A DNA stretch of 64,000 nucleotides from Alphaproteobacteria bacterium (GTDB lineage: Bacteria > Pseudomonadota > Alphaproteobacteria > JAQWUY01). Of this stretch, positions 848 through 35,908 are shown piece by piece. Each line of letters begins with the position of its first letter. Positions within the stretch are counted from its first letter, which is position 1. The stretch spans positions 580,649 to 644,648 of the forward strand of contig OZ246977.1 in NCBI GenBank assembly GCA_965232465.1, in the 5' to 3' direction. The notes under the pieces are model-generated. The model ran no database searches. It was not told the DNA's origin and saw only the letters and a list, made by a program, of their open reading frames with translations. The position numbers and the translations under genes were made by a program.

Positions 848-2695
848 ATGCGGTCATTAAAAGGCTTTAATCGTCGGGTTTTTTTGTATATGGGCGGGAT
901 TACTATGGCGTTTATAGTCGTACTTTGGCGTTTGTATATGTTACAATTATCCCAATCGCAAAGATACCGTACCCGGTCGGAAGATAACCGTTTGCGTCAG
1001 TGGGTTTTCCCCCCGCTAAGGGGTATTATTCGTGATGATAATAATAAAGTATTGGCCAGTGGACGACGGGTATTCCACTTGTATATTATGAAGGAAAAAC
1101 CTAATAACATGTTGGTAAGTTTACGCAAATTACAGGCACTTATTACTTTAACCGACGATCAGATAGAAGAGATTGTAAATTTAAAGAAGGACGATGACAA
1201 CAAAAAAAGCTATATTTCTGTTCGTAAAAATCTTAGCTGGGAAGAAGTATCACGCATATATGTGAATAAAACGCATATACAAGGCATTCATATTGCCCCA
1301 GGGGAACGGCGTGAGTACTTCTATAATGAATTGTATGCTCATATTATTGGATATGTGAAGAAAGTACCCATCAAAGATAACAAAAATGAAAGTGAATATC
1401 CATATTTGGGATCTGAAATTGGTGAATCTGGGTTGGAAAAAGGGTATGAATATTTATTAAAGGGTCAACAGGGTTGGAAAATAGAGGAAGTCGATGTCCA
1501 TGGTCGTACAGTCCGAGTGGTGGAAGAAAATACTAAATTGCCCACCAGGGGGGATTCAGTAGCGTTAACTATTAACACAAAATTACAAGGGTATATCGCC
1601 CAAATATTAAAAATACACAAAGCCGCATCAGCTGTTGTGATGAATATACACACAGGTGAAATTAAGGCTATGGTCAGTCATCCCAGTTTTGATCCCAATT
1701 TATATGTAAGGGGTATGAGTCCCAAAGAGAATCAAATAATGCAAGGTGATCCATATGGTTCGCAGGTAAACAGAACCATTGCCGGGTTGTATGCCCCCGC
1801 ATCGATTTTTAAGGTGCCGGTGGCTATGGCGGCCCTTAAAGCGGGGGTTGACCCGGCATTTCGTGTGCATTGTACCGGGTCCATAGAAATGTTTGACAAA
1901 CAGTGGTATTGTTGGAAAAAAAGGGGACATGGCAGGGTGGGGATTGTCAAATCGCTTAGTGAAAGTTGTGATATTTGGTATTATGAGGTGTCGCAAAAAG
2001 TTGGTGTCGATAATATTGCCCATATGGCACGAAAGTTGGGATTGGGGCAAAAATATGATTTTGGCTTGCCATTTGGAAAAGGTGGAGTGATTCCTGATAA
2101 AAAATGGAAAAAGGAAAAGCTTAGGGAACCTTGGTACAAGGGGGATACCGTTAACACTTCGATTGGACAAGGGGAGGTGAAGGTATCGCCATTACAACTA
2201 GCGGTGATGACCGCCCGTATTATGAATGGGGGATATGCGGTGGTGCCTAGATTAACCCATATCAGCGTATATGGCGAACCCTACCCAACCACATTTCCAT
2301 CTTTAAATTTAAACAAAAATCATATCAAAATCGTGCAAAAAGGGCTTTATGAAACGGTAAACAGTTCCCTTGGTACAGCACATAAATTAAAAGGGGGGTG
2401 GTGGAAAATGGGCGGAAAAACCGGCACAGGGCAAGTGCGTGACATCACCGCCGAAGAACGTGAACAGGGGGTTACCGAAAATGAAGATATGGAATGGAAA
2501 TATCGGGATAATGCGTTGTTTGTGGGATATGCTCCTGCGGAAAATCCGCAATTTGTGGTATCTGTGGTGGTGGAACATGGGGGATCCGGAGCCCGCATTG
2601 CCGCCCCCATTGCCCGGCAGATATTTGATTATATGGCGTTGTTGGATTTTTTGGGTAAAGACACGCCGAAATTTGTGGCAAAGGGGGCATCCTGA
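848..2695 (+). CDS. mrdA: Penicillin-binding protein 2 (peptidoglycan D,D-transpeptidase)
   Basis: It has an N-terminal membrane anchor, an SxxK motif (SIFK) and a KTG motif (GKTGTG). An AGGGAGG Shine-Dalgarno lies upstream. It is 615 aa and is followed by rodA with a 1-nt overlap. Confidence 0.9.
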   Translation: MRSLKGFNRRVFLYMGGITMAFIVVLWRLYMLQLSQSQRYRTRSEDNRLRQWVFPPLRGIIRDDNNKVLASGRRVFHLYIMKEKPNNMLVSLRKLQALITLTDDQIEEIVNLKKDDDNKKSYISVRKNLSWEEVSRIYVNKTHIQGIHIAPGERREYFYNELYAHIIGYVKKVPIKDNKNESEYPYLGSEIGESGLEKGYEYLLKGQQGWKIEEVDVHGRTVRVVEENTKLPTRGDSVALTINTKLQGYIAQILKIHKAASAVVMNIHTGEIKAMVSHPSFDPNLYVRGMSPKENQIMQGDPYGSQVNRTIAGLYAPASIFKVPVAMAALKAGVDPAFRVHCTGSIEMFDKQWYCWKKRGHGRVGIVKSLSESCDIWYYEVSQKVGVDNIAHMARKLGLGQKYDFGLPFGKGGVIPDKKWKKEKLREPWYKGDTVNTSIGQGEVKVSPLQLAVMTARIMNGGYAVVPRLTHISVYGEPYPTTFPSLNLNKNHIKIVQKGLYETVNSSLGTAHKLKGGWWKMGGKTGTGQVRDITAEEREQGVTENEDMEWKYRDNALFVGYAPAENPQFVVSVVVEHGGSGARIAAPIARQIFDYMALLDFLGKDTPKFVAKGAS

Positions 2696-3828
2696 TGTGG
2701 TTTTTGACCCTATTGGATAAATTAAAAGCCATCGATTGGCTATTATATTTTGCCATATTATTGTTGGCAAGTATCGGCACTGTGGCATTATACTCTGTTG
2801 CTGATGGGTCGATGAACCCATGGGCGAAACCGCATATTATTCGATTTATTGTGGCATCGGTGTTGATGATAATTGTGGCGGTGATACCACTTCGTTTTTG
2901 GTATAAAATGGTATGGTTGGCATATGTGGTGGCATTATTGTTATTGGTATATGTGGGAATCGCAGGGGAGATGGGTAAGGGTGCACAGCGGTGGATTGAT
3001 TTAAAAGTATTTAATCTGCAACCCTCCGAAGTTATGAAAATTGTTCTTATATTGGTGCTTGCCCGATTTTACAGCCGATTATCGGAACACCAAGTATCCT
3101 ACCCATTTTTTTTGGGCTTGGCAATTTTTATTATTTTTTTACCTACTATATTGGTGCTGCGACAGCCTGATTTGGGCACAGCAATTTTAATTTTTGGGGG
3201 GGGTGTCAGTATGATTGTGGTTGCGGGCGTATCGTATAAATGGATGCTTAGCGGATTGGTGCTAGTATCGGCGACGATTCCCGTGGCGTGGTTTTATGTG
3301 TTACGCCCATATCAGCAAAAACGCATTAGTGATTTTTGGCAAAATGAAGATGAATGGCAGATTAAACAAAGTAAAATAGCCATTGGATCCGGCGGATTTA
3401 AGGGGCGGGGATATACGGATGGGACACAAACCCAATATGGATTTTTGCCCGAACCCCATACAGATTTTATTTTTTCGGCAATTGCCGAAGAATTTGGTTT
3501 TATTGGGTCTGCGGTTATTTTATTATTGGTAATGTTTATTTTATTACGCATATTTTTAATAGGTTTTTCTGTCCGTGCATATTATAGCAAAATTTTATGT
3601 ATTGGCATCGGGGTAACTTTCTTTTTGTATGTGATTATTAATACGGGTATGGTTATGGGGTTGTTTCCTGTGGTGGGTGTGCCATTTCCATTGTTGTCAT
3701 ATGGGGGAACGGTGATGTTAACGACTATGATCGCCTTTGGGTTTGTACAAAATGCGTGGGTACATAAAATGGATATTCCCATTTTGTTAAGCCCAACCTT
3801 AAATCAAGTCAATAAAGAACACAGATAA
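2695..3828 (+). CDS. mrdB: Peptidoglycan glycosyltransferase RodA (FtsW/RodA/SpoVE family)
   Basis: It is a 377-aa polytopic membrane protein with FtsW/RodA hallmarks (…GSGGFKGRGYTDGTQTQYGFLPEPHTDFIFS…). It is translationally coupled to mrdA. Confidence 0.9.
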   Translation: MWFLTLLDKLKAIDWLLYFAILLLASIGTVALYSVADGSMNPWAKPHIIRFIVASVLMIIVAVIPLRFWYKMVWLAYVVALLLLVYVGIAGEMGKGAQRWIDLKVFNLQPSEVMKIVLILVLARFYSRLSEHQVSYPFFLGLAIFIIFLPTILVLRQPDLGTAILIFGGGVSMIVVAGVSYKWMLSGLVLVSATIPVAWFYVLRPYQQKRISDFWQNEDEWQIKQSKIAIGSGGFKGRGYTDGTQTQYGFLPEPHTDFIFSAIAEEFGFIGSAVILLLVMFILLRIFLIGFSVRAYYSKILCIGIGVTFFLYVIINTGMVMGLFPVVGVPFPLLSYGGTVMLTTMIAFGFVQNAWVHKMDIPILLSPTLNQVNKEHR

Positions 3829-5466: not shown

Positions 5467-5498
5467 AAAAAGCCCTGCTAACAAGCAGGGCTTTTTTT
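5467..5498. terminator. Rho-independent terminator, bidirectional between convergent genes
   Basis: The sequence is aaaaAGCCCTGCTaacaAGCAGGGCTttttttt, a perfect 9-bp stem flanked by an A-run and a T-run. Confidence 0.75.
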
Positions 5499-5519: not shown

Positions 5520-6791
5520 TTATTGTTTTTCAGCGGCGTATCCACCTATCATCATACTGAATGGATCACCATTTTTTGACATTGTGACGGCACCTGCGGT
5601 TTCTTCGGCGTTGGGACCAAAGAAATTTCCTTCAAATTGTGCATCCCATTTTCCAGATTGCCCAGCACTCCCGCCGCCTTCAGTCAGGGTGCCTGTATAA
5701 ACACCAGTATTATCATACTTAATGGCATTGCCCCCCTGTAATTGCAATTTTGCACTGTTGCTGATAAAGGGTGTATCGTTTCCCGTACCGCTGATCGCCA
5801 TTGTGTTATATTTCATATTATTTACATCAAATTGTGTAATTTCTTGATTTGAAACATCAATTTTTATGTCCACATCCCCACGCATATAAACTTCCTGAGT
5901 GTTAATGCTCCCCATGGCGTGATACCCCCCTGTTTTTTTATAATTTGCCCCCACTTTGCTTAGGTTCGCAGTCGTTGTATAATCGCCTGTGATATTGGTA
6001 AACATAGCACTTCTTAACTTTGTATCAAGCATCGCAAAAATACCTAATCTGGCATGTTTGGCAAAAACATTTTTCTTGCTACTGATAACCATTATGATCG
6101 TATGTACCTTATCCCCATCTTTTAAATGTACACCATCCTTATGGAAATAATACTTAGCAGACGAATCGTGGAATACATCTTTTTTGCCATTTACCACATC
6201 TATCCAACTTGCCCCTTTTAAACTAGAACGATTACCTGTACTTAAACCTGCGGTGTTTAAAAGGTGCATATCAAAGGTATTTGCTAAAGCCCCAAACGCA
6301 TTTTTTACAGTAAGTGTTGGTATTTTTTGATTATCTGATACAGTCAGAGCCCCCCTTGTATATACATCGCTGGTATCAGCTTTTTTATAATCAGAATCCT
6401 TCATTCCTTTAATAAGCAAGGTACCGCCTTTTAAAACAGCTTCTCGTATTTCTTGGCAATCATTGGCACTTGTAACACACGATTCATAGTTTAAGGTAAT
6501 CCTGCCATCGCTATGAAATTGCATGGTGCTGTTACCCTGTATTTTTGCATTTGCAACATCTACTTTATAATTTGGATTATAACTAGGCGATATTGATTTT
6601 TGCGGCTTAGATAAAGTGGACTTATTGCCATTTTGTATCGCCCCCAATGACTCGTCAGAGAGCTGCAAATCACTGCGTTGTAATGTTGGGGATGTTGGGG
6701 CAGCCGTAGTCTTTTCAGCACTTCCACCGCCCCCGCCGCCACAAGCGGAAATATACACAGCAATAAGCGTTGTTAATAATATTTTTTGCAT
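5520..6791 (-). CDS. Surface lipoprotein candidate of the TbpB/fHbp type (lipobox, poly-Gly linker, C-terminal 8-strand barrel signature)
   Basis: The N-terminus MQKILLTTLIAVYISAC-GGGGGGS has a lipobox followed by a Gly linker. The C-terminus '…EGNFFGPNAEETAGAVTMSKNG…IGGYAAEKQ' follows the G-F(F/Y)G-x-x-A-E-E-x-AG … (F/I)G-x-x-A-x-K/R-Q pattern of the TbpB/fHbp/Lipoprotein_5 barrel. Confidence 0.6.
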   Translation of the reverse strand: MQKILLTTLIAVYISACGGGGGGSAEKTTAAPTSPTLQRSDLQLSDESLGAIQNGNKSTLSKPQKSISPSYNPNYKVDVANAKIQGNSTMQFHSDGRITLNYESCVTSANDCQEIREAVLKGGTLLIKGMKDSDYKKADTSDVYTRGALTVSDNQKIPTLTVKNAFGALANTFDMHLLNTAGLSTGNRSSLKGASWIDVVNGKKDVFHDSSAKYYFHKDGVHLKDGDKVHTIIMVISSKKNVFAKHARLGIFAMLDTKLRSAMFTNITGDYTTTANLSKVGANYKKTGGYHAMGSINTQEVYMRGDVDIKIDVSNQEITQFDVNNMKYNTMAISGTGNDTPFISNSAKLQLQGGNAIKYDNTGVYTGTLTEGGGSAGQSGKWDAQFEGNFFGPNAEETAGAVTMSKNGDPFSMMIGGYAAEKQ

Positions 6792-6989
6792 AACTTCAAT
6801 TCCTTTCCTTAACTTCTTAAATTTTATGCACCTTTGCCATGTATAACATACCTTGGAGTATTATGCAAATTGTTTTTTTATTTTTGATGGGATATCATAT
6901 TTAAAAACCTGTGCTTTACAGAGCGGGCGATTCGTATTATAGTACTGTAAAAGTATATGAAAATTTTTATCATAAAAGGAGATGTTTTT

Positions 6990-9688: not shown

Positions 9689-12600
9689 TTAAAACTGTCT
9701 TTGAATATTGCCGATTTCACGAAATTTGAATTGTACAAACAGGGATTTTTCTGGGGCACTGCGGGATTTGGAATAATCCTGCTTATATTCAATATCGGCA
9801 CCAAAACAGCCACAACTGGTGTTGTATTCAAAGCCTACGGATTGACGAACAAGTCCTTTTTTGCTTTCTTCAAATTCATAACTGTGTTCTGTGCGTATGT
9901 GCCAACGGTTATTGATTTTGTATGCTATCCCAAATTTTGTTTGTGCCAGGGGGTCTAGTTGTGAATTTTTCCGAGGTTCAATTTTTGTGTATCCCATGTC
10001 AATTTTATATGTATCACGCGTATATGCAACATTTGATTCCAATTTTCGGGTGCGAAAACTATGGCTGTCCAGTTCAAAGTTAGCATATATATTGACATTG
10101 TCCCAATTGGCATATAGATTGCCAATAAAATCCGATGCAATGTTATTATCCCCTTGTGTGATATTTTGCCCCAAGAATGCTTGGACATAGGTATCGTCTT
10201 GCCATATTTTTAAACGGCTTCCATAGGATATGCGACTACCTGTGTCTATTTTATCCACGCCTGCGTATCGGTTGTTGGCAAATAGTGTGGATTCGTCTAA
10301 TTCAAAATCCACACTGTCATTATTGGGTAACCCATCGGGATTTTCATAGAATTTTGATATAAAAATGCCCGCTATAGGTTCCAGGATAATGTGACGGTTA
10401 AGTGCAGGCCTTGAGTTTTGTGGGCGAATCGACAAGGGATATGATACGACCATACTTGCCATCGGGGTAAAACGATTTAAACGGCCATTGGTATGGTCTT
10501 TGCCATTGACAGTAAATTCTTTAAAATATCCGAATTTGTATGCATCCGCCCGTCCGATAATGTCGGTTTTTACCAACATGCCTTGCTGGGTAACAAAAGG
10601 ACGGGAATATGTAACCGTTGTGGATATTGTATGGGATTTCAAAGTGCCTTTTTTTTGTATCGAACGGGCAATCGAAGTAATGTTTACATTGCTGGTGCCT
10701 GCTGGGCTTTGAAAAGTTCGTTCGTATTGTATACTGGGGAATAAAGTGGTTACAGGACGATCGTTTTGGCGGATGTCACGATAGGATGCGGAATCTATTT
10801 CCAGTGTGGAACTTGGGGTAATTTTCGTGGCTGTTGCCCCCGTTCGCAAGGTGTCTTTTGTGGCTTTGTTCAACAGCGTGTAGGTCTTTAAATAGGATTT
10901 TTCGGTGACATTTTGATGGTTTAATCTGTATTGCCACCCTGTGTGCGTATTTTTTACATAAGATGCAAACCAATGTCCCTGTATTTCGCCCCCAGTATCG
11001 TCCTCTCTGATAAAAGACACATTATGTCGCAGGATGGTTTTGCGGGTATCATTGTTGTTACGGTATAAAAATTCCATCCCTTGTCCCTTGCGGGTAGTGT
11101 AAATGGGGCTGATAAGAATGTCGCTGTTATCTGTCAGGGATTTATAATAATGTCCCTGTACAAACAGCCCCAATACATTAGTGGTACCTGTATCCGGTAC
11201 CAACCAACCATCTTTTTTGACCGCATCTGGTGTGGGTTGTTCCAAATTTGACCCGAAATACGGTAGCGGAATACCCAACAGTTCCATACGGGAATTGGTA
11301 AAAGCAATATTTTGGTTTTCTACATCTAGTGTAACTTTGTCTGCCCGCATTAGCCATGTGGGGGAATTTTCGCCTTCTGGTACCCTACAGGATGTATAAG
11401 TAGCTTTTTCCGCTTGTATATTGCCATTGGCATAAGTTTGGAAAGTTTGGGCCGATATTTGTACATTATTTTGTAAATTGCGTTGCAGGTTGGTACCGCT
11501 TATGGTATCGAAGGCGATATTTGACCGCAAAGTATCCATGGTGCTCACATCACCAGTAGGGTCCGTGTACGATACATTCCCTTCTGCTTGTACCAAGTCC
11601 AAGGATTCGTTATATATGATTTGATTTGATTGTATTTCCCCATGTATCCCCTTGGCGACGGTATTGTTACGGATTGTTAATTGGCGAATATTATCGTCAT
11701 ATGTTGCCATATCCCCCGTTAATATCATATTATCTTGCAGGGTTGTGGTATATTGTACCCCCCCGCTGGCGTTCATAATATTTTCAGATTGTGTATATAC
11801 AATGGTATCAGAAGTCAATATGCCATTTCCATTTTTGGCACTTGCCCCTTTGCTGAGGGTTATAAACTGTTTTTTCCTGTCATATATGGCATGATTCCCT
11901 GTTAAAGTGATATTGTCAGATTTTGATACAAATATGGTATTTTCTGTTGTTTCTATTACCTCCTGTTTTTGATCGTATTGTAAGCGGTCCGATTTTAATA
12001 TGGCTTGATCGTTTTCCGCTTGGGCGTTTTTATCCAAAACCAAGGACTGTTTTTTCCTGTCATATATGGCATGATTCCCTGTTAAAGTGATATTGTCAGA
12101 TTTTGATACAAATATGGTATTTTCTGTTGTTATTACCTCCTGTTTTTGATCGTATTGTAATCTGTCCGATTTTAATATGGCTTGGTCGTTTTCTGCTTGG
12201 GCGTTTTTATCCAAAACTAAGGTTTGTTGCATGCCATTATATAAGGCATTTTTGCCTTGTGCCACCAAGGGTGAAATTTTTGATGTAAACACAGTATGCC
12301 CTTGTGTTTGGATAATATCCATATTCTGATTATATTGCATGTTGTCTGATTGTATAACCGCTGCATTATTTTCTGCACGGGCATTTTTGTTTAACATTAA
12401 AACATTATTTTTTGGGTTATATATTAAATTTTGTGATTGTAATATTATGGGGCGATTTGTGTTTGTGGTGGTAAAATATGCATTACCTGTGGCGGTTGTG
12501 ATTTGGGTGGTTTGGTCGTATTTAATGGAATCAGATCGCAATATCCCTTGGGTATTTTTGGCAATTGCGTTGGTATCCAGTGTTATTGTTTTTGATTGCC

Positions 12601-12772: not shown

Positions 12773-13803
12773 CCCAATACATATGGGGGCAGGGGGGTCA
12801 AGAATACCATTGCTTGTGTCAAGTTTAAGAAAAAGAATAATACAAAAGCGGTTATCATGCCAATACCAATTAACTTCGACGGTATCACCCGTGCATACGG
12901 ACGCATGGTAAAGTACGCAGCAAACAGCACTAATGCTATAAACATAAATGGCATCGACAATAATTTATGGTATGTAAAGGTATACTCGTCCGCATTTAAG
13001 CCCCCCTTGCGTAAAGATTGAATGTGCGGGGGTAATTGCCAAAATGACATCTCGGTCGGTTTAGTAATCATATTTTCGATTAAGCTATTATTGACTGTGG
13101 TCGACATCATCATATTTTGTATGGGCGTACTGACATTATCCAAGGTACGCATATTACCCTTATGTAATAAAAATCCTTCTGGTTGCAGGGTCATTTTATC
13201 CACACGATATGTCCGTTGTATTTTTTGTTGCGAATCCAATTCCAAAATTTGTACTTGGTACAAAGTAATGGGAATGTTGATGGCGAGGGAGCTGTTGATA
13301 ATACGGTATCCGTCGGGAATTTTTTCACGTAACCATAAATTATTACGACTCAGTGTAATTTCCGCTGTATTTGTGGTATCCCCATAAAAATTCCAGCGTT
13401 TTTTATATTGGTCATATGTGATGCTGGCAATGGGATTTAATATGGATGTGTGTAGCACACCCAGTACAAATGCAATGACCATAGACGGAATAAGAATTTG
13501 CAGACTGCTCAGCCCAATGCTAAGTTGAATGGTCGTTTGTTTTTCCCGATTCATATGAAAGAATGTATACATAAATGCAAACATCACGACATAGGGTAAG
13601 GCGGTGGTAAACAAGGTGGAAAAATTCAAAATCTCCATTTCCAATAATTGCATAAAGGTTAAATGGGGCAATCGGGATGCGATACCCATAATGTCCAAAA
13701 AGGCAATTAAGATCGACATGGCAAGGGCGATAACCCATAATCCATGTATATTTCTTCGCAAGATATAAAAAAACATGGTTTTGCCCATTTTTAAAGACTT
13801 CAT
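12703..13803 (-). CDS. lptG: LPS export ABC permease LptG (YjgP/YjgQ family)
   Basis: It is a 366-aa permease with YjgP/YjgQ topology, membrane segments at both ends and a periplasmic beta-jellyroll region. It is translationally coupled (ATGA overlap) to the upstream paralogue lptF. Confidence 0.7.
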   Translation of the reverse strand: MKSLKMGKTMFFYILRRNIHGLWVIALAMSILIAFLDIMGIASRLPHLTFMQLLEMEILNFSTLFTTALPYVVMFAFMYTFFHMNREKQTTIQLSIGLSSLQILIPSMVIAFVLGVLHTSILNPIASITYDQYKKRWNFYGDTTNTAEITLSRNNLWLREKIPDGYRIINSSLAINIPITLYQVQILELDSQQKIQRTYRVDKMTLQPEGFLLHKGNMRTLDNVSTPIQNMMMSTTVNNSLIENMITKPTEMSFWQLPPHIQSLRKGGLNADEYTFTYHKLLSMPFMFIALVLFAAYFTMRPYARVIPSKLIGIGMITAFVLFFFLNLTQAMVFLTPLPPYVLGWLPTIIILLLGGFLTLSSEKVG

Positions 13804-22189: not shown

Positions 22190-22501
22190 ATGAGTAAAAT
22201 ACGGAAGAATTACCCTGCTAAATTCAAAAAAGAGGTTGTTTTGGCAGTATTGCGTGATGACACGCCGATATCGGAATTATCGTCTCGTTTTGGAGTGCAT
22301 GCTACGGTTATTCAAAGGTGGAAGCGAGAGGCTGTTTGCTCTATTGAGGCAGGATTTTCAGGCAATCTTGACAAACAAAAGCATGATAGCGAAGCCCATG
22401 TTAAAGAGCTTCATGCCAAGATAGGTCAATTGACGATTGAACGGGATTTTTTGTCGGACATTTCGGATCGTTTAGGATTACAGGTTAAAAAAAAATGGTA
22501 A
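22190..22501 (+). CDS. IS3-family transposase OrfA (HTH)
   Basis: It has an HTH_Tnp_1-like N-terminus 'NYPAKFKKEVVLAVLRDDTPISELSSRFGVHATVIQRWKRE' and a leucine-zipper tail. Confidence 0.85.
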   Translation: MSKIRKNYPAKFKKEVVLAVLRDDTPISELSSRFGVHATVIQRWKREAVCSIEAGFSGNLDKQKHDSEAHVKELHAKIGQLTIERDFLSDISDRLGLQVKKKW

Positions 22502-23349
22502 ATTCTAATTCCCCCGATTTAAGTATTGTGCGTCAATGCGAGTTGCTTGGAATGAACCGTTCAAGTTATTACTATCAATGTAAAGAAGAGAGTGATTTTA
22601 ATGTGGAGTTGATGGAACAGATAGCCCAGCAACATTTACAAACGCCTTTTTATGGTGCGAGGCAAATGATGCGTCATTTAATCCGCCAAGGCTATAAGGT
22701 CGGCAGAAAACGCATCCGCAGGCTGATGAAGGTACTGAGGCTAAAAGCAATTTACCAAGAGCCAAAAACATCTACTATAAACCCGCAACATAAGGTGTAT
22801 CCGTATTTGTTGAGAAACTTGGATATTAACCGTCCTAATCAGGTTTGGTGTACAGATATTACTTATATCCCGATCAAACGAGGGTTTTTATATTTGGTTG
22901 CTGTTATGGATTGGTATAGTAGGAAGGTACTCTCATGGCGTTTATCTAATACGCTGGATAGTAGGTTTTGTGTTGAAGCGTTAAATGATGCTTTGGCAAA
23001 ATACCCCACCCCAGAGATATTTAATACAGACCAAGGCAGTCAGTTTACTTCCCTTGATTTTACGGATACCTTAAAAGATAATGGTATTCGTATATCTATG
23101 GATGGTAAAGGGTGTTGGAAGGATAATGTCATAATTGAAAGATTTTGGAAATCATTGAAGTATGAATGTGTTTATTTGCAAGCATTTACCAGCGGTGTAA
23201 TGGCTAAGGAAAGCATAAGAAAATGGCTTAAATTTTACAACCAAGATAGACCCCATTCACATTTCGGTTTGACAACACCCGCAGAAACATATACAATGCA
23301 TTCTCATGCAAAAGAAGTTCCGCCTACGGCTACACTTACTTTTACATGA
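22495..23349 (+). CDS. IS3-family transposase OrfB (DDE integrase core)
   Basis: It has an rve-type DDE core (…VWCTDITYIP…NTDQGSQFTS…). It is probably expressed as an OrfAB fusion by a -1 frameshift at TTAAAAAAAAATGG (22486..22496). Confidence 0.85.
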   Translation: MVNSNSPDLSIVRQCELLGMNRSSYYYQCKEESDFNVELMEQIAQQHLQTPFYGARQMMRHLIRQGYKVGRKRIRRLMKVLRLKAIYQEPKTSTINPQHKVYPYLLRNLDINRPNQVWCTDITYIPIKRGFLYLVAVMDWYSRKVLSWRLSNTLDSRFCVEALNDALAKYPTPEIFNTDQGSQFTSLDFTDTLKDNGIRISMDGKGCWKDNVIIERFWKSLKYECVYLQAFTSGVMAKESIRKWLKFYNQDRPHSHFGLTTPAETYTMHSHAKEVPPTATLTFT

Positions 23350-28307: not shown

Positions 28308-29933
28308 TCACCCTTTATCTAAATGAAAAGACCAGTCGATGTGTATTTGTTTTTCCCCCAGTATTTCTGGGGTAAAATGTTGTTTTAAAACAATCTGTTG
28401 CGTAGGTTTATACATATGATTTTCATCGATATAATAACTTTTTTCAATATAAATTTGGCAATTTTTCGCTTTAAATATAAGAAAATGTTTCGCCTTGTTT
28501 AAAATCAAAACCACCTGTCTGGATTCTAATATTGTCACTCGTATATTGGGGTGTAGGTGAAATCGCACGGCAATATCCATCGGCTGGACCAAGGAAAAAT
28601 CGTTCTTAAATACCACTGAATCCCGTCCGCACATGATATGTCCATTTGTGTGCATCCCGATGTGGCGTTCGACTTTGACCCCAAACACTTTTTCGTATGC
28701 TGTGTGGGCGGTTTTAAGTACTTTCCAATCGCCTATATCTTGCGATTTTGTGTTGATCACATGGGGGGTATAGTCCTTTTTTCTGAAATTTTTGTGTTGT
28801 AATTTATGAATGGGTATTGTATTGGTGTTGTTGATAACCAATACATTGTGGGCGGCAGAATACTGGCACTTAATCCCCATACTTTGTGTATATCCACAGG
28901 CAACACATATGGGGTGTCCTTTATAATACAGGGTGATACCCAGTATGCCCCCATTATCGGTGGAATGCCCCATACGAGTTTGGGCGTCAAGGTATACATT
29001 AAGTGCAGGCGTTTTGTACATAAAATATCCACTGTGATATAACGCAGGTACAATATGGCGTTCTTTTTTAAATGAGTTTTCTATCATATGATATGCATAA
29101 TTTAAGGCACTGGTCCCCGCCATATGGGAAAAATCCTTATTTACATTATAAAAAAATCGCACCACTTGCCACATTTTATCCACATATGAATCCAGTATTT
29201 CTGGAACATCAGCTTGCATTTTATGCAGGCTAGCACGCACATATACACAGATTTTTAATACTTCTAGGTGCGTAGGCAAATGTCCTCGAACAAATCCATC
29301 TTCGTCGATAATAGTCTCTAAAATCGTTGTAAATTTTTTTAATAACTGGGAAATGGGCAAGTCTTCATCACCAATACTTAATCCCGTACAAATAATCGCC
29401 CGTAAATTTTGTAATTGTTGTATATGCGTTTGGGGGGGGTGAAACATAGACGCATTGGATACATATTGCAAATACTGATAATGTATGGCGATGATATGAT
29501 GAAAGTGTTGGCGATCCGTATGTGATATGCCCATGACTAACGATTCATAATGGCTCAGCCATGTACATAGGCGTTTTGCGGTAATATCTGTGTGCCATGC
29601 GGAAAAATCCATTTTGTAAGTTGTATGCCACTGCATAATCCATGACATACATTTTTTAAACTCGACCGACGATCGAATATGTAACATCCATTCAAAACTG
29701 TGGGCATGTTGTATCCATGCGTCGGGGGTTTGTGGGGGGTATGCAAAGGGGGTATCATGGGTGATAACCGTGTGCCCTTGCCATGTAAAAGTACCTTGTT
29801 GATACAAATCTCCTTTATTGGCATCTGACGACCAACACTTGGGTAACTCCTGAACTTTTTGCACAAGATTCTTATGAGACTTAAACGCCCGCCACAGGTT
29901 AATTTTATATAAAAAGTGGTGAAATATGGACAT
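28308..29933 (-). CDS. Heparinase II/III-like family protein
   Basis: It is 541 aa. A gene of this family is conserved immediately downstream of purH in many Alphaproteobacteria. The assignment rests on position and general composition only. Confidence 0.5.
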   Translation of the reverse strand: MSIFHHFLYKINLWRAFKSHKNLVQKVQELPKCWSSDANKGDLYQQGTFTWQGHTVITHDTPFAYPPQTPDAWIQHAHSFEWMLHIRSSVEFKKCMSWIMQWHTTYKMDFSAWHTDITAKRLCTWLSHYESLVMGISHTDRQHFHHIIAIHYQYLQYVSNASMFHPPQTHIQQLQNLRAIICTGLSIGDEDLPISQLLKKFTTILETIIDEDGFVRGHLPTHLEVLKICVYVRASLHKMQADVPEILDSYVDKMWQVVRFFYNVNKDFSHMAGTSALNYAYHMIENSFKKERHIVPALYHSGYFMYKTPALNVYLDAQTRMGHSTDNGGILGITLYYKGHPICVACGYTQSMGIKCQYSAAHNVLVINNTNTIPIHKLQHKNFRKKDYTPHVINTKSQDIGDWKVLKTAHTAYEKVFGVKVERHIGMHTNGHIMCGRDSVVFKNDFSLVQPMDIAVRFHLHPNIRVTILESRQVVLILNKAKHFLIFKAKNCQIYIEKSYYIDENHMYKPTQQIVLKQHFTPEILGEKQIHIDWSFHLDKG

Positions 29934-34579: not shown

Positions 34580-35908
34580 CCATGTGTTATATTGGGAATA
34601 TTCCCAATATAACACATACAAAATTAAGGAGACTTACTTATGACTAAAAGAACCAAGAAGTTAAATACTAGACCAGAGATTAACCCTGATTTGATCAAGC
34701 AACTATTGCAACAAGCCGAAGGGCAGGAATTGTTTGGTGCTGATGGCTTTTTTCAATCTTTGAAACAAAGCCTTGCCAACGGTATCCTTGACGGGGAAAT
34801 GGAACATCACCTTGGCTATCAAAAGCATGATAAATCCCCCAAAAGTACTACAAATCGCCGTAATGGACATTACTCCAAAACCATTATCAGTGACAATGAT
34901 AGTTTAAATTTACGCATACCACGGGACAGAGATAACAATTATGAACCCCAGTTTATTCCAAAAAATGCTCGGCGATTTGATGGCTTTGATGATAAAGTTA
35001 TATCCATGTACGCCCGTGGCATGACTATGCGGGAAATTCAGCAGTATATTTATGAGATTTATGGAACAGAAGTGTCCCATGAATTGATTTCAACTGTTAC
35101 GGACAAAGTCATAGACGACATCAACGCATGGCAAAACAGACCGCTTAATAGTATTTATCCCATTGTTTATCTGGACTGTATACACATTAAAACCCGTGAC
35201 ACCCATGTTATTATCAACAAGGCGGTTTACCTAGCTGTGGGCATCAATATGGAAGGCAAAAAAGAAGTACTTGGCATGTGGATTGCCAAAACCGAAGGGG
35301 CTAAGTTTTGGTTACAAGTGATAACAGAACTTAAAAACCGTGGCGTTACTGATATATTCATAGCCTGTATCGATGGACTAACTGGATTTGAAGACGCCAT
35401 CTGTTCCGTATTTCCACAAACCACCGTGCAGCTGTGTATTGTGCATATGGTACGCAACAGCCTAAAATTCGTCCCTTGGAAAGATAAAAAGCAAGTGGCT
35501 GATGATTTAAAAGCCATTTATAACGCTTCATCTGAGGACATGGCATTGCAACAGTTAAAGGCATTTCGGCAAAAATGGGACAGTACATATCCAACCATCG
35601 CCAGCAGTTGGCAGAAAAAGTGGGCGAGTATAGCACCGTGTCTAGCCTATCCCGAGCATATTAAAAAGGTCATTTATACCACAAACACCATAGAATCCAT
35701 CAATCGGCAGATTAGAAAAATCATTAAAAACAAAGGGGTATTCCCAAATGATACGGCTGTCAAAAAATCTTTATTTTTAGCCTTGCAAAATGCAGAAAAA
35801 AGATGGACAATGCCCATTAGGAATTGGAAACAAGCTTTAAACCAATTCGCTATTATGTTTGACGATAGAGTTAAACTTTAAAATACTATTTACACAAACT
35901 TTCTGATA
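34546..35908 (+). mobile_element. Intact IS256-family insertion sequence
   Basis: The inverted repeats are 'cagaaagtttgtgtaagtagac…' on the left and '…tatttacacaaactttctga' on the right. There is a single 413-aa transposase at 34640..35881. Confidence 0.85.
34640..35881 (+). CDS. IS256-family transposase (mutator type)
   Basis: It is 413 aa with the conserved DDE region of IS256/MULE transposases (…YLDCIHIKTRD…, …ACIDGLTGF…, …ESINRQIRK…). Confidence 0.9.
   Translation: MTKRTKKLNTRPEINPDLIKQLLQQAEGQELFGADGFFQSLKQSLANGILDGEMEHHLGYQKHDKSPKSTTNRRNGHYSKTIISDNDSLNLRIPRDRDNNYEPQFIPKNARRFDGFDDKVISMYARGMTMREIQQYIYEIYGTEVSHELISTVTDKVIDDINAWQNRPLNSIYPIVYLDCIHIKTRDTHVIINKAVYLAVGINMEGKKEVLGMWIAKTEGAKFWLQVITELKNRGVTDIFIACIDGLTGFEDAICSVFPQTTVQLCIVHMVRNSLKFVPWKDKKQVADDLKAIYNASSEDMALQQLKAFRQKWDSTYPTIASSWQKKWASIAPCLAYPEHIKKVIYTTNTIESINRQIRKIIKNKGVFPNDTAVKKSLFLALQNAEKRWTMPIRNWKQALNQFAIMFDDRVKL

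Follow-up and report, generated by a model that had tools for sequence, protein, structure and literature searches.

A gene in the window analysed here (64,000 nucleotides of contig OZ246977.1, positions 580,649 to 644,648, from Alphaproteobacteria bacterium assembly GCA_965232465.1; coordinates without a prefix are window positions) encodes a 423-residue protein that is probably an outer-membrane lipoprotein acting on its own and built like type XI secretion system (T11SS) cargo. Such a protein would be lipidated, flipped to the cell surface by a surface lipoprotein assembly modifier (Slam) and bind a ligand with its N-terminal domain. The observed part of this reading consists of the open reading frame (ORF), a conserved lipobox, the homology of the C-terminal domain to the barrel of TbpB and related proteins, and the predicted fold. 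An earlier note on the same DNA had described the ORF, its lipobox ISAC, a run of six glycines and a C-terminal motif. All four were found again in the sequence, and the lipobox and the C-terminal motif are kept throughout the family.

Domain architecture and homology of the barrel

The coding sequence is complete (5520..6791 (-), ATG start, 423 amino acids (aa) plus stop), as seen in the ORF list and the sequence. The product begins with MQKILLTTLIAVYISAC followed by GGGGGGSAEK, and its C-terminal end reads ...FEGNFFGPNAEETAGAVTMSKNGDPFSMMIGGYAAEKQ and also ...GNFFGPNAEETAGAVTMSKNGDPFSMMIGGYAAEKQ, with the motif GNFFGPNAEETAGAV ahead of IGGYAAEKQ. The following parts were delineated:

6741..6791 (-), aa 1-17: signal peptide with lipobox, MQKILLTTLIAVYISAC, read from the sequence
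6741-6743 (-), Cys17: predicted lipidation site, lipobox ISAC
6648..6740 (-), aa 18-48: flexible tether, Gly6 then a Ser/Thr/Pro/Ala-rich segment, GGGGGGSAEKTTAAPTSPTLQRSD...
5955..6647 (-), aa ~49-279 (~230 aa): N-terminal domain, mixed alpha/beta
6456..6479 (-), Cys105...Cys112: C-x-T-x3-D-C motif
5523..5954 (-), aa ~280-423: C-terminal barrel domain (TbpB type)
5586..5630 (-), aa 388-402: signature motif GNFFGPNAEETAGAV, the best-conserved part of the barrel

The lipobox follows the pattern [LIVF][SA][AG]C in 9/9 aligned family members, with C17 invariant, and one paralog (P0004) gave a weak LPAM_1 match. A signal peptide with a lipobox cysteine is a feature of the Slam-dependent lipoprotein class and is present in the 423-aa protein; judged by this motif, Cys17 would be lipidated. 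Among the window's 339 six-frame ORFs, this one alone combines a lipobox with a poly-glycine run directly after it. Residues 1-48 had a predicted local distance difference test score (pLDDT) of <50 in both AlphaFold2 (AF2) models, and aa 18-48 are predicted to be disordered. The glycine run is conserved in the closer family members only; Gly-run tethers likewise occur in Slam-adjacent proteins of Erwinia and Sagittula and in P0011.

The N-terminal domain (N-domain) is presumed to be a ligand-binding or effector domain. In the AF2 model it had a pLDDT of mostly 66-83 and comprised 3 helices and ~15 strands. Residues C105, T107, D111 and C112 are invariant in 9/9 family members, including the 23%-identical P0010, and the two cysteines probably form a disulfide. 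No significant relatives of the N-domain were detected in the PDB with a profile search, and no Pfam family was consistent across members. A CBM39 match (E = 0.0015-0.003) was below threshold, was seen in 1/6 members and was rejected. Identity to the paralogs of a sister genome (described below) was 38-44% in the N-domain versus 53-61% in the barrel. The domain is a candidate new ligand-binding module.

The family is small, with about ten proteins in all public data searched. When 1.84 billion representative proteins were searched exhaustively with a hidden Markov model (HMM) of the family, nine proteins in total were retrieved, and a second, word-indexed search with the 9-sequence alignment yielded no further members. 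In 185,579 GTDB species-representative genomes and JGI metagenome contigs, no member was found with the family patterns used. A 2,630,883-bp NCBI contig encodes an identical protein (P0001), which is recorded there with neither a protein name nor a Pfam domain.

Judging by profile comparisons and the structural model, we are confident that the C-terminal domain (C-domain) is genuinely, if distantly, homologous to the TbpB_B_D / fHbp-C / NHBA-C barrel, because five lines of evidence agree. Every family member shows the same sub-threshold C-terminal match to Pfam family PF01298 (TbpB_B_D, formerly Lipoprotein_5; 16.9-22.4 bits). The family HMM reached P0011 (E = 1.7e-4) and P0012 (E = 2.9e-4), both genuine members of PF01298 (Pfam E = 1e-16 and 1e-33, respectively), the P0012 alignment covering positions 9-159 of the C-domain. 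When the family C-domain was aligned with six true PF01298 barrels, hhalign returned 96.3% (E = 1.8e-9) over 129 columns across the whole domain, against 0.1% for the N-domain as a control. A reverse HMM, for which six unrelated true PF01298 barrels were the sole source, matched this ORF alone among the 339 in the window (E = 4.7e-11). Finally, the C-domain profile retrieved 22 chains from all PDB sequences, 21 of which were TbpB, LbpB, hemophilin or NHBA (best E = 4.5e-4); only this C-domain-only profile worked, as PDB sequence searches with a single sequence or the full-length profile gave nothing significant. The domain is connected to true PF01298 members by both profile-profile and transitive searches.

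The conservation is strongest in the signature motif, in which no family member deviates at G388, F390, G392, A395 or G400. The motif aligns with G(G/H/N)F(F/Y/M)GP.A.E.AG of TbpB, LbpB, P0011, P0012 and an Erwinia lipoprotein. The high score of P0009 (E = 1.8e-24) was discounted. This protein of 4,685 aa repeats a 733-aa unit with perfect periodicity, with two TbpB_B_D barrels per unit; the repetition inflates E-values, and only a motif of ~40 residues was matched. The protein probably arose as an artefact, when a repeated or circular contig was assembled or read through.

Structure prediction led to the same superfamily. A first AF2 run with 5 sequences gave a pLDDT of 44.6, which rose to 69.7 (predicted template modelling score 0.74) with P0007, P0008 and P0010 added (eight sequences). 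The C-domain is predicted to form a closed eight-stranded antiparallel beta-barrel (strands 283-296, 299-312, 317-330, 349-351, 365-371, 382-391, 397-406 and 413-422; pLDDT ~85-97). In Foldseek searches against the PDB, TbpB was the top match (E = 4e-8), accompanied by the TbpB C-lobe, fHbp (E = 1.3e-6, template modelling (TM) score 0.58), the NHBA C-domain (TM 0.70, target-normalised) and hemophilin. Of 28 matches at E < 1e-3, 25 belonged to the TbpB/fHbp/NHBA/hemophilin superfamily; the three exceptions were chains of BFA1 (5yvf), a chloroplast protein with two barrels that is not part of it. The first, weaker model had already returned the same structural families. TM-scores to handle-plus-barrel structures were 0.41-0.47, compared with 0.70 to the barrel alone. 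The earlier note had named the eight-strand barrel and suggested structure prediction as a check; the model has such a barrel, and Foldseek places it with TbpB, fHbp and NHBA.

Surface display, function and alternative explanations

In the proposed pathway, the 423-aa protein would be exported by Sec, lipidated on Cys17 of the ISAC lipobox, chaperoned through the periplasm and delivered to the outer membrane. A Slam encoded elsewhere in the genome would flip it to the surface, with the barrel as the cargo-directing part, and the N-domain, held on its tether of ~30 residues, would bind a ligand. All predicted Slam-dependent lipoproteins share an eight-stranded barrel, with a variable N-terminal handle before it (PMC5449769), and the barrel has been proposed to direct cargo to the T11SS (PMC12282271). 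In characterised relatives, the barrel common to all cargo is thought to direct the protein to the Slam translocon and the N-terminal domain binds the ligand; TbpB additionally requires Skp (PMC9090332). The combination found here, a conserved C-terminal barrel with a variable N-domain, corresponds to published descriptions of Slam/T11SS cargo (PMC5449769, PMC12282271).

The taxonomic context is unremarkable. An alphaproteobacterial origin, suggested in the earlier note, agrees with the best matches of the window's GroEL, which were 68-75% identical and all from Alphaproteobacteria among the matches listed. The gene order lptF-lptG-lptD-rsmA and a mreBCD-pbp2-rodA cluster fit a Gram-negative envelope. 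The same note had implied that a TbpB-like protein would be a surprise in such a genome, which was overstated. On plasmids of Novosphingobium, Sulfitobacter and Alloyangia, a gene annotated as 'transferrin-binding protein-like solute binding protein' lies directly upstream of one annotated as 'surface lipoprotein assembly modifier'. Slam/T11SS occurs in all proteobacterial classes (Hooda 2017, PMC5449769), and one Slam subcluster is largely from Sphingomonadaceae (Grossman 2021, PMC8406197). Given these annotated pairs and the literature, the mere presence of a lipoprotein with a TbpB-type barrel in an alphaproteobacterium is nothing unusual.

Several observations weigh against the assignment as Slam cargo. 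All direct matches to curated models stayed below threshold: PF01298 scored 19.9 bits (E = 0.0011, aa 288-420; gathering threshold 26), PF08794 (FHBP_C) 16.9 bits over aa 373-402 only (cut-off 28.1) and the NCBIfam equivalog NF041636 (slam_lipo) 17.7 bits (E = 0.0034, cut-off 80). By curated criteria the protein is not a member of PF01298 or NF041636. The TbpB/fHbp-type barrel claimed in the earlier note thus fell short in the PF01298 HMM check (19.9 versus 26) and stood in hhalign, the reverse HMM, the PDB profile search and the structure prediction. No SlipAM protein was present among the large ORFs of the window, and tblastn with a verified Erwinia Slam matched neither the window nor 178 kb of DNA from the lineage (~7% of one such genome), in line with the statement of the earlier note that no Slam/DUF560 lies in the window. 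No Slam/DUF560 gene was found within 10 kb of seven family loci either, and in most described cases the cargo gene adjoins its Slam, adjacency being common and not universal. A search of a large protein database with a profile of five Slams gave 895 matches; the best 120 were all Sphingomonadales-like and none of them came from the 2,630,883-bp or 2,583,227-bp contigs, which says little. Upstream of the gene, the search for a Fur-box or a shared regulatory motif produced nothing distinctive (best Fur-box match 13/19, in an AT-rich region). The N-domain model is of moderate confidence only and allows no ligand to be inferred.

The lack of an adjacent Slam is not decisive, because meningococcal Slam1 serves the unlinked genes of TbpB, LbpB and fHbp. 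In PMC5449769, adjacency is reported only for Slam2 and HpuA. By analogy with these systems, Slam-dependent surface display of the 423-aa protein is slightly favoured. The capture of host proteins or nutrients at the cell surface, proposed in the earlier note, is plausible.

The same fold could also serve in another location. The protein might be an ordinary Lol-sorted lipoprotein that remains on the inner, periplasm-facing side of the outer membrane, in a genome without Slam, with the barrel as a structural or ligand-binding module. This explanation, which we consider rather unlikely, would account for the missing Slam in the window, in the lineage DNA and beside the seven loci, for the great distance from the NF041636 equivalog and for a barrel divergent enough to fail the Pfam threshold. 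However, <10% of the genome was examined, and the three meningococcal lipoproteins mentioned above make do with an unlinked Slam. Moreover, the long Gly/Ser/Thr/Pro tether recurs in Slam-adjacent lipoproteins, and the sister-genome paralogs have multiplied behind variable poly-C promoters, typical of surface-exposed antigens. It is highly improbable that the C-domain is not homologous to the TbpB barrel and that the motif of a beta-rich protein was matched by chance. The sub-threshold scores of all direct HMM matches, the empty single-sequence PDB search and the large score of P0009, inflated by its 733-aa repeat and due to the motif only, would be expected in that case. In contrast, the hhalign match runs the full length of the domain and its negative control is clean, no other ORF of the window is matched by the reverse HMM, the P0012 alignment spans positions 9-159 of the domain, the PDB profile matches fall almost all into one superfamily, and the structure prediction agrees.

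As to function, a nutrient-capture co-receptor or a hemophore-like protein (TbpB, HpuA or hemophilin type) would bind a ligand loaded with metal or haem and pass it on to a TonB-dependent receptor whose gene lies elsewhere. TbpB, LbpB, HpuA and hemophilin are among the structural and sequence matches, and genes of T11SS cluster 1 are found alongside TonB and haem pathways (PMC12282271). Nevertheless, such a role is improbable: the protein has one barrel and not the bilobed TbpB/LbpB layout, no TonB-dependent receptor was found within 10 kb of the seven family loci and no TonB or haem-oxygenase gene is adjacent there, and the best Fur-box match is not distinctive. The N-domain matches no handle or clamp domain by sequence, and the TM-scores to handle-plus-barrel structures are below that to the barrel alone. 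A surface lipoprotein of the stand-alone binding protein or adhesin type (fHbp, NHBA, NilC, PmSLP) looks more like the case at hand than a TbpB/HpuA-type co-receptor, because the gene appears monocistronic, no receptor gene adjoins it, the paralogs are dispersed, a distinctive Fur-box is missing and there is a single barrel.

Sister-genome paralogs and genomic context

In the European Nucleotide Archive (ENA) entries ERZ25067870 and ERZ25067872, at least five family copies lie at scattered loci, two of them in tandem. The duplicated unit extends from ~230-270 bp upstream through the stop codon, with 82-94% nucleotide identity. The upstream cassettes are located as follows:

L002:7900-8225, paralog upstream cassette (~230 bp)
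L002:9680-10006, paralog upstream cassette (~230 bp)
L003:9680-10006, paralog upstream cassette (~230 bp)
L085:8790-9116, paralog upstream cassette (~230 bp)
L086:2000-2325, paralog upstream cassette (~230 bp)

All sister copies have a promoter of the strong sigma-70 type, consisting of an A-tract, TTGAC., a spacer and TG.TA[CT]AAT. A poly-C tract fills the spacer between -35 and -10. Three copies have 17 nt here, a fourth has 18 nt and a fifth, with an uninterrupted C13, has 19 nt; these homopolymer lengths should be read with caution, since low-coverage ENA contigs carry indel errors. For instance, the PBP2 gene is intact in the window (848-2695, 615 aa) and split into four or five fragments at L001:11311-13159, on an ENA metagenome contig of the same organism with 2.46x coverage. 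Phase variation by homopolymers in promoter spacers is known from Neisseria. We hypothesize that the poly-C spacers, which resemble that arrangement, might permit phase or graded variation of expression. The same sister locus had identical poly-C tracts in two samples, with no slippage seen between them. The sister cassette promoter is not present at the window gene.

A near-palindromic motif of 22-23 bp, GGGAAC-N10-GTTCCC (GGGAAC-TATATACAAT-GTTCCC), brackets the promoter-plus-gene cassette in L085 and L086, and a few further sites exist in the sister genome:

L085:8781-8803 and 10476-10498, palindromic motif
L086:1980-2011 and 3698-3729, palindromic motif
L003:9722-9741 and 12976-12995, palindromic motif

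The motif could be a recombination site or an element resembling repetitive extragenic palindromes. It is absent from the 64-kb window, even with 3 mismatches allowed. In P0004 (L002:10001-11377), the lipobox region is partly duplicated (…LLSAC-GGGGD-LSLSCYLLPSKVSILLSDC-KGGGGG…), and this sequence suggests recombination between copies. A more far-reaching reading can be offered only tentatively: the window protein may be the single-copy member of an unrecognised, lineage-restricted T11SS-type surface family with a new ligand-binding N-domain, of which the sister genome holds a phase-variable, cassette-borne antigen repertoire. The poly-C promoter paralogs of the sister genome, outside the window, are the most interesting lead. 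If it is true that these cassettes switch expression, a mechanism of the Neisseria/Haemophilus type would extend to an alphaproteobacterium.

The window gene itself looks monocistronic, because it has its own promoter-like site and terminator and its neighbours are convergent and divergent. The signals at its two ends are:

6936..6963 (-), sigma-70-like promoter candidate: TTTTCA-16-TATAAT, ~145 nt 5' of the ATG, 10/12 consensus matches
5467..5496 (-), intrinsic terminator-like hairpin: 13-bp stem, 6 G-C pairs, T-run

The promoter scan was a consensus match alone and constitutes weak evidence, with 8 sites found compared with 5.8 expected in shuffles. A Shine-Dalgarno-like AGGAAAGGA lies ~10 nt 5' of the ATG. 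The hairpin lies ~25 nt past the stop codon, between the lipoprotein gene and a convergent CitMHS transporter gene; on the other side, a Zn-dependent alcohol dehydrogenase gene is divergent. The genes around also encode a short-chain dehydrogenase/reductase, RsmA and LptD. Horizontal acquisition was considered and not found compelling (gene GC 39.9% versus 40.3% for the window; GC at third codon positions somewhat low at 0.335).

Ten housekeeping proteins each formed a singleton cluster at 90% identity in a set of 15 billion proteins; the lineage is thus very sparsely sampled. At Rfam gathering thresholds, no RNA family, not even a tRNA, was detected in the whole 64-kb window. At least three insertion sequence (IS) transposases are encoded in the 64 kb (22495-23349 (+), 34640-35881 (+) and 51252-52450 (-)), two of the IS3 family (rve/HTH_21) and one of the Mutator/IS256 family, which is a fairly high load for a 2.6-Mb genome. 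A two-partner-secretion (TPS) exoprotein of 1,963 aa (53808-59699 (+)) contains a TPS domain, FG-GAP repeats and YDG domains. No TpsB transporter gene adjoins it; the IS3-family transposase ORFs at 51252-52450 are upstream and groEL is downstream. A similar TPS/YDG protein of 2,215 aa is encoded 2.5 kb from paralog P0003 in L086. A 541-aa protein next to purH (28308-29933 (-)) has a heparinase II/III-like C-terminal domain (E = 2e-20). It is possibly a glycosaminoglycan or alginate lyase, an activity that may point to a host-associated or polysaccharide-degrading lifestyle.

Comparison with known systems

With the window protein, the TbpB/fHbp barrel superfamily gains a highly divergent branch, which the Pfam and NCBIfam models miss. 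In poorly sampled lineages, cargo of the T11SS type can escape notice by scoring below threshold and lying apart from any Slam gene. Co-occurrence surveys would miss such cargo because it is sub-threshold and away from Slam genes. The window gene itself is an incremental addition, a known architecture in a class in which such proteins are already annotated.

Among the Slam-type lipoproteins, an Erwinia sp. E602 plasmid protein (WP_212408330.1), found via P0011, offered a direct comparison. It is annotated as 'Slam-dependent surface lipoprotein' by the Prokaryotic Genome Annotation Pipeline (PF01298 E = 1e-14), and the gene after it encodes a true Slam (PF04575 E = 6e-68, plus TPR_Slam). Its layout is the same, with LTAC, Gly14, a variable N-domain, GHFMGPAAEELAGV and FGATKQ, and BLASTP aligned it with residues 299-400 of the window protein (E = 6e-5). 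The Cys-Gly-linker architecture, likened in the earlier note to that of known Slam cargo, has its counterpart here. More generally, the lipobox cysteine, Gly-rich tether and variable N-domain are shared with the single-barrel lipoproteins of Erwinia, the PmSLP class of Pasteurella and Novosphingobium/Sulfitobacter/Alloyangia, as is one C-terminal barrel with the motif G.F.GP.A.E.AG ... (F/Y)(G/A)A.K. In a Slam-adjacent protein of Sagittula, the lipobox cysteine is followed, close by, by a long Gly-rich tract. The genes of these single-barrel proteins sit directly upstream of a Slam gene and their products pass the PF01298 threshold, whereas neither is true of the window protein. Its N-domain is unrelated to those of the compared Slam-adjacent proteins, and the barrel alone is held in common.

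The best structural superposition of the barrel was with the C-domain of NHBA (GNA2132; PDB 6cuj, 2lfu, 5o1r; TM 0.70), although sequence similarity was marginal (E = 0.2-0.6). NHBA is a lipoprotein with a long flexible N-terminal part, encoded by a stand-alone gene. Its N-terminal region is largely disordered and carries an Arg-rich heparin-binding stretch, whereas the window protein has a predicted folded domain of ~230 aa in this place. fHbp (PDB 8bk2, 4ayi) resembles the window protein in the weak FHBP_C match, in the Foldseek result (E = 1.3e-6) and in its monocistronic gene unlinked to a receptor. In contrast, the window protein is ~170 residues longer, has no similarity to the fHbp N-terminal domain and shows nothing suggesting factor H binding; with neither that domain nor an FHBP_C score of at least 28.1 bits, it does not belong to fHbp proper. 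With TbpB and LbpB, the top Foldseek and PDB-profile matches, it shares the barrel signature motif and a lipid anchor. However, these proteins have two lobes, each made of a handle and a barrel, and act together with a TonB-dependent receptor (TbpA/LbpA) encoded next to them, whereas in the window protein a single PF01298 stretch at the C-terminus is modelled as the only barrel, the N-domain is different and no receptor gene lies close by. The architecture and the barrel class are already known from these systems; a highly divergent barrel member and an N-domain without known relative are new.

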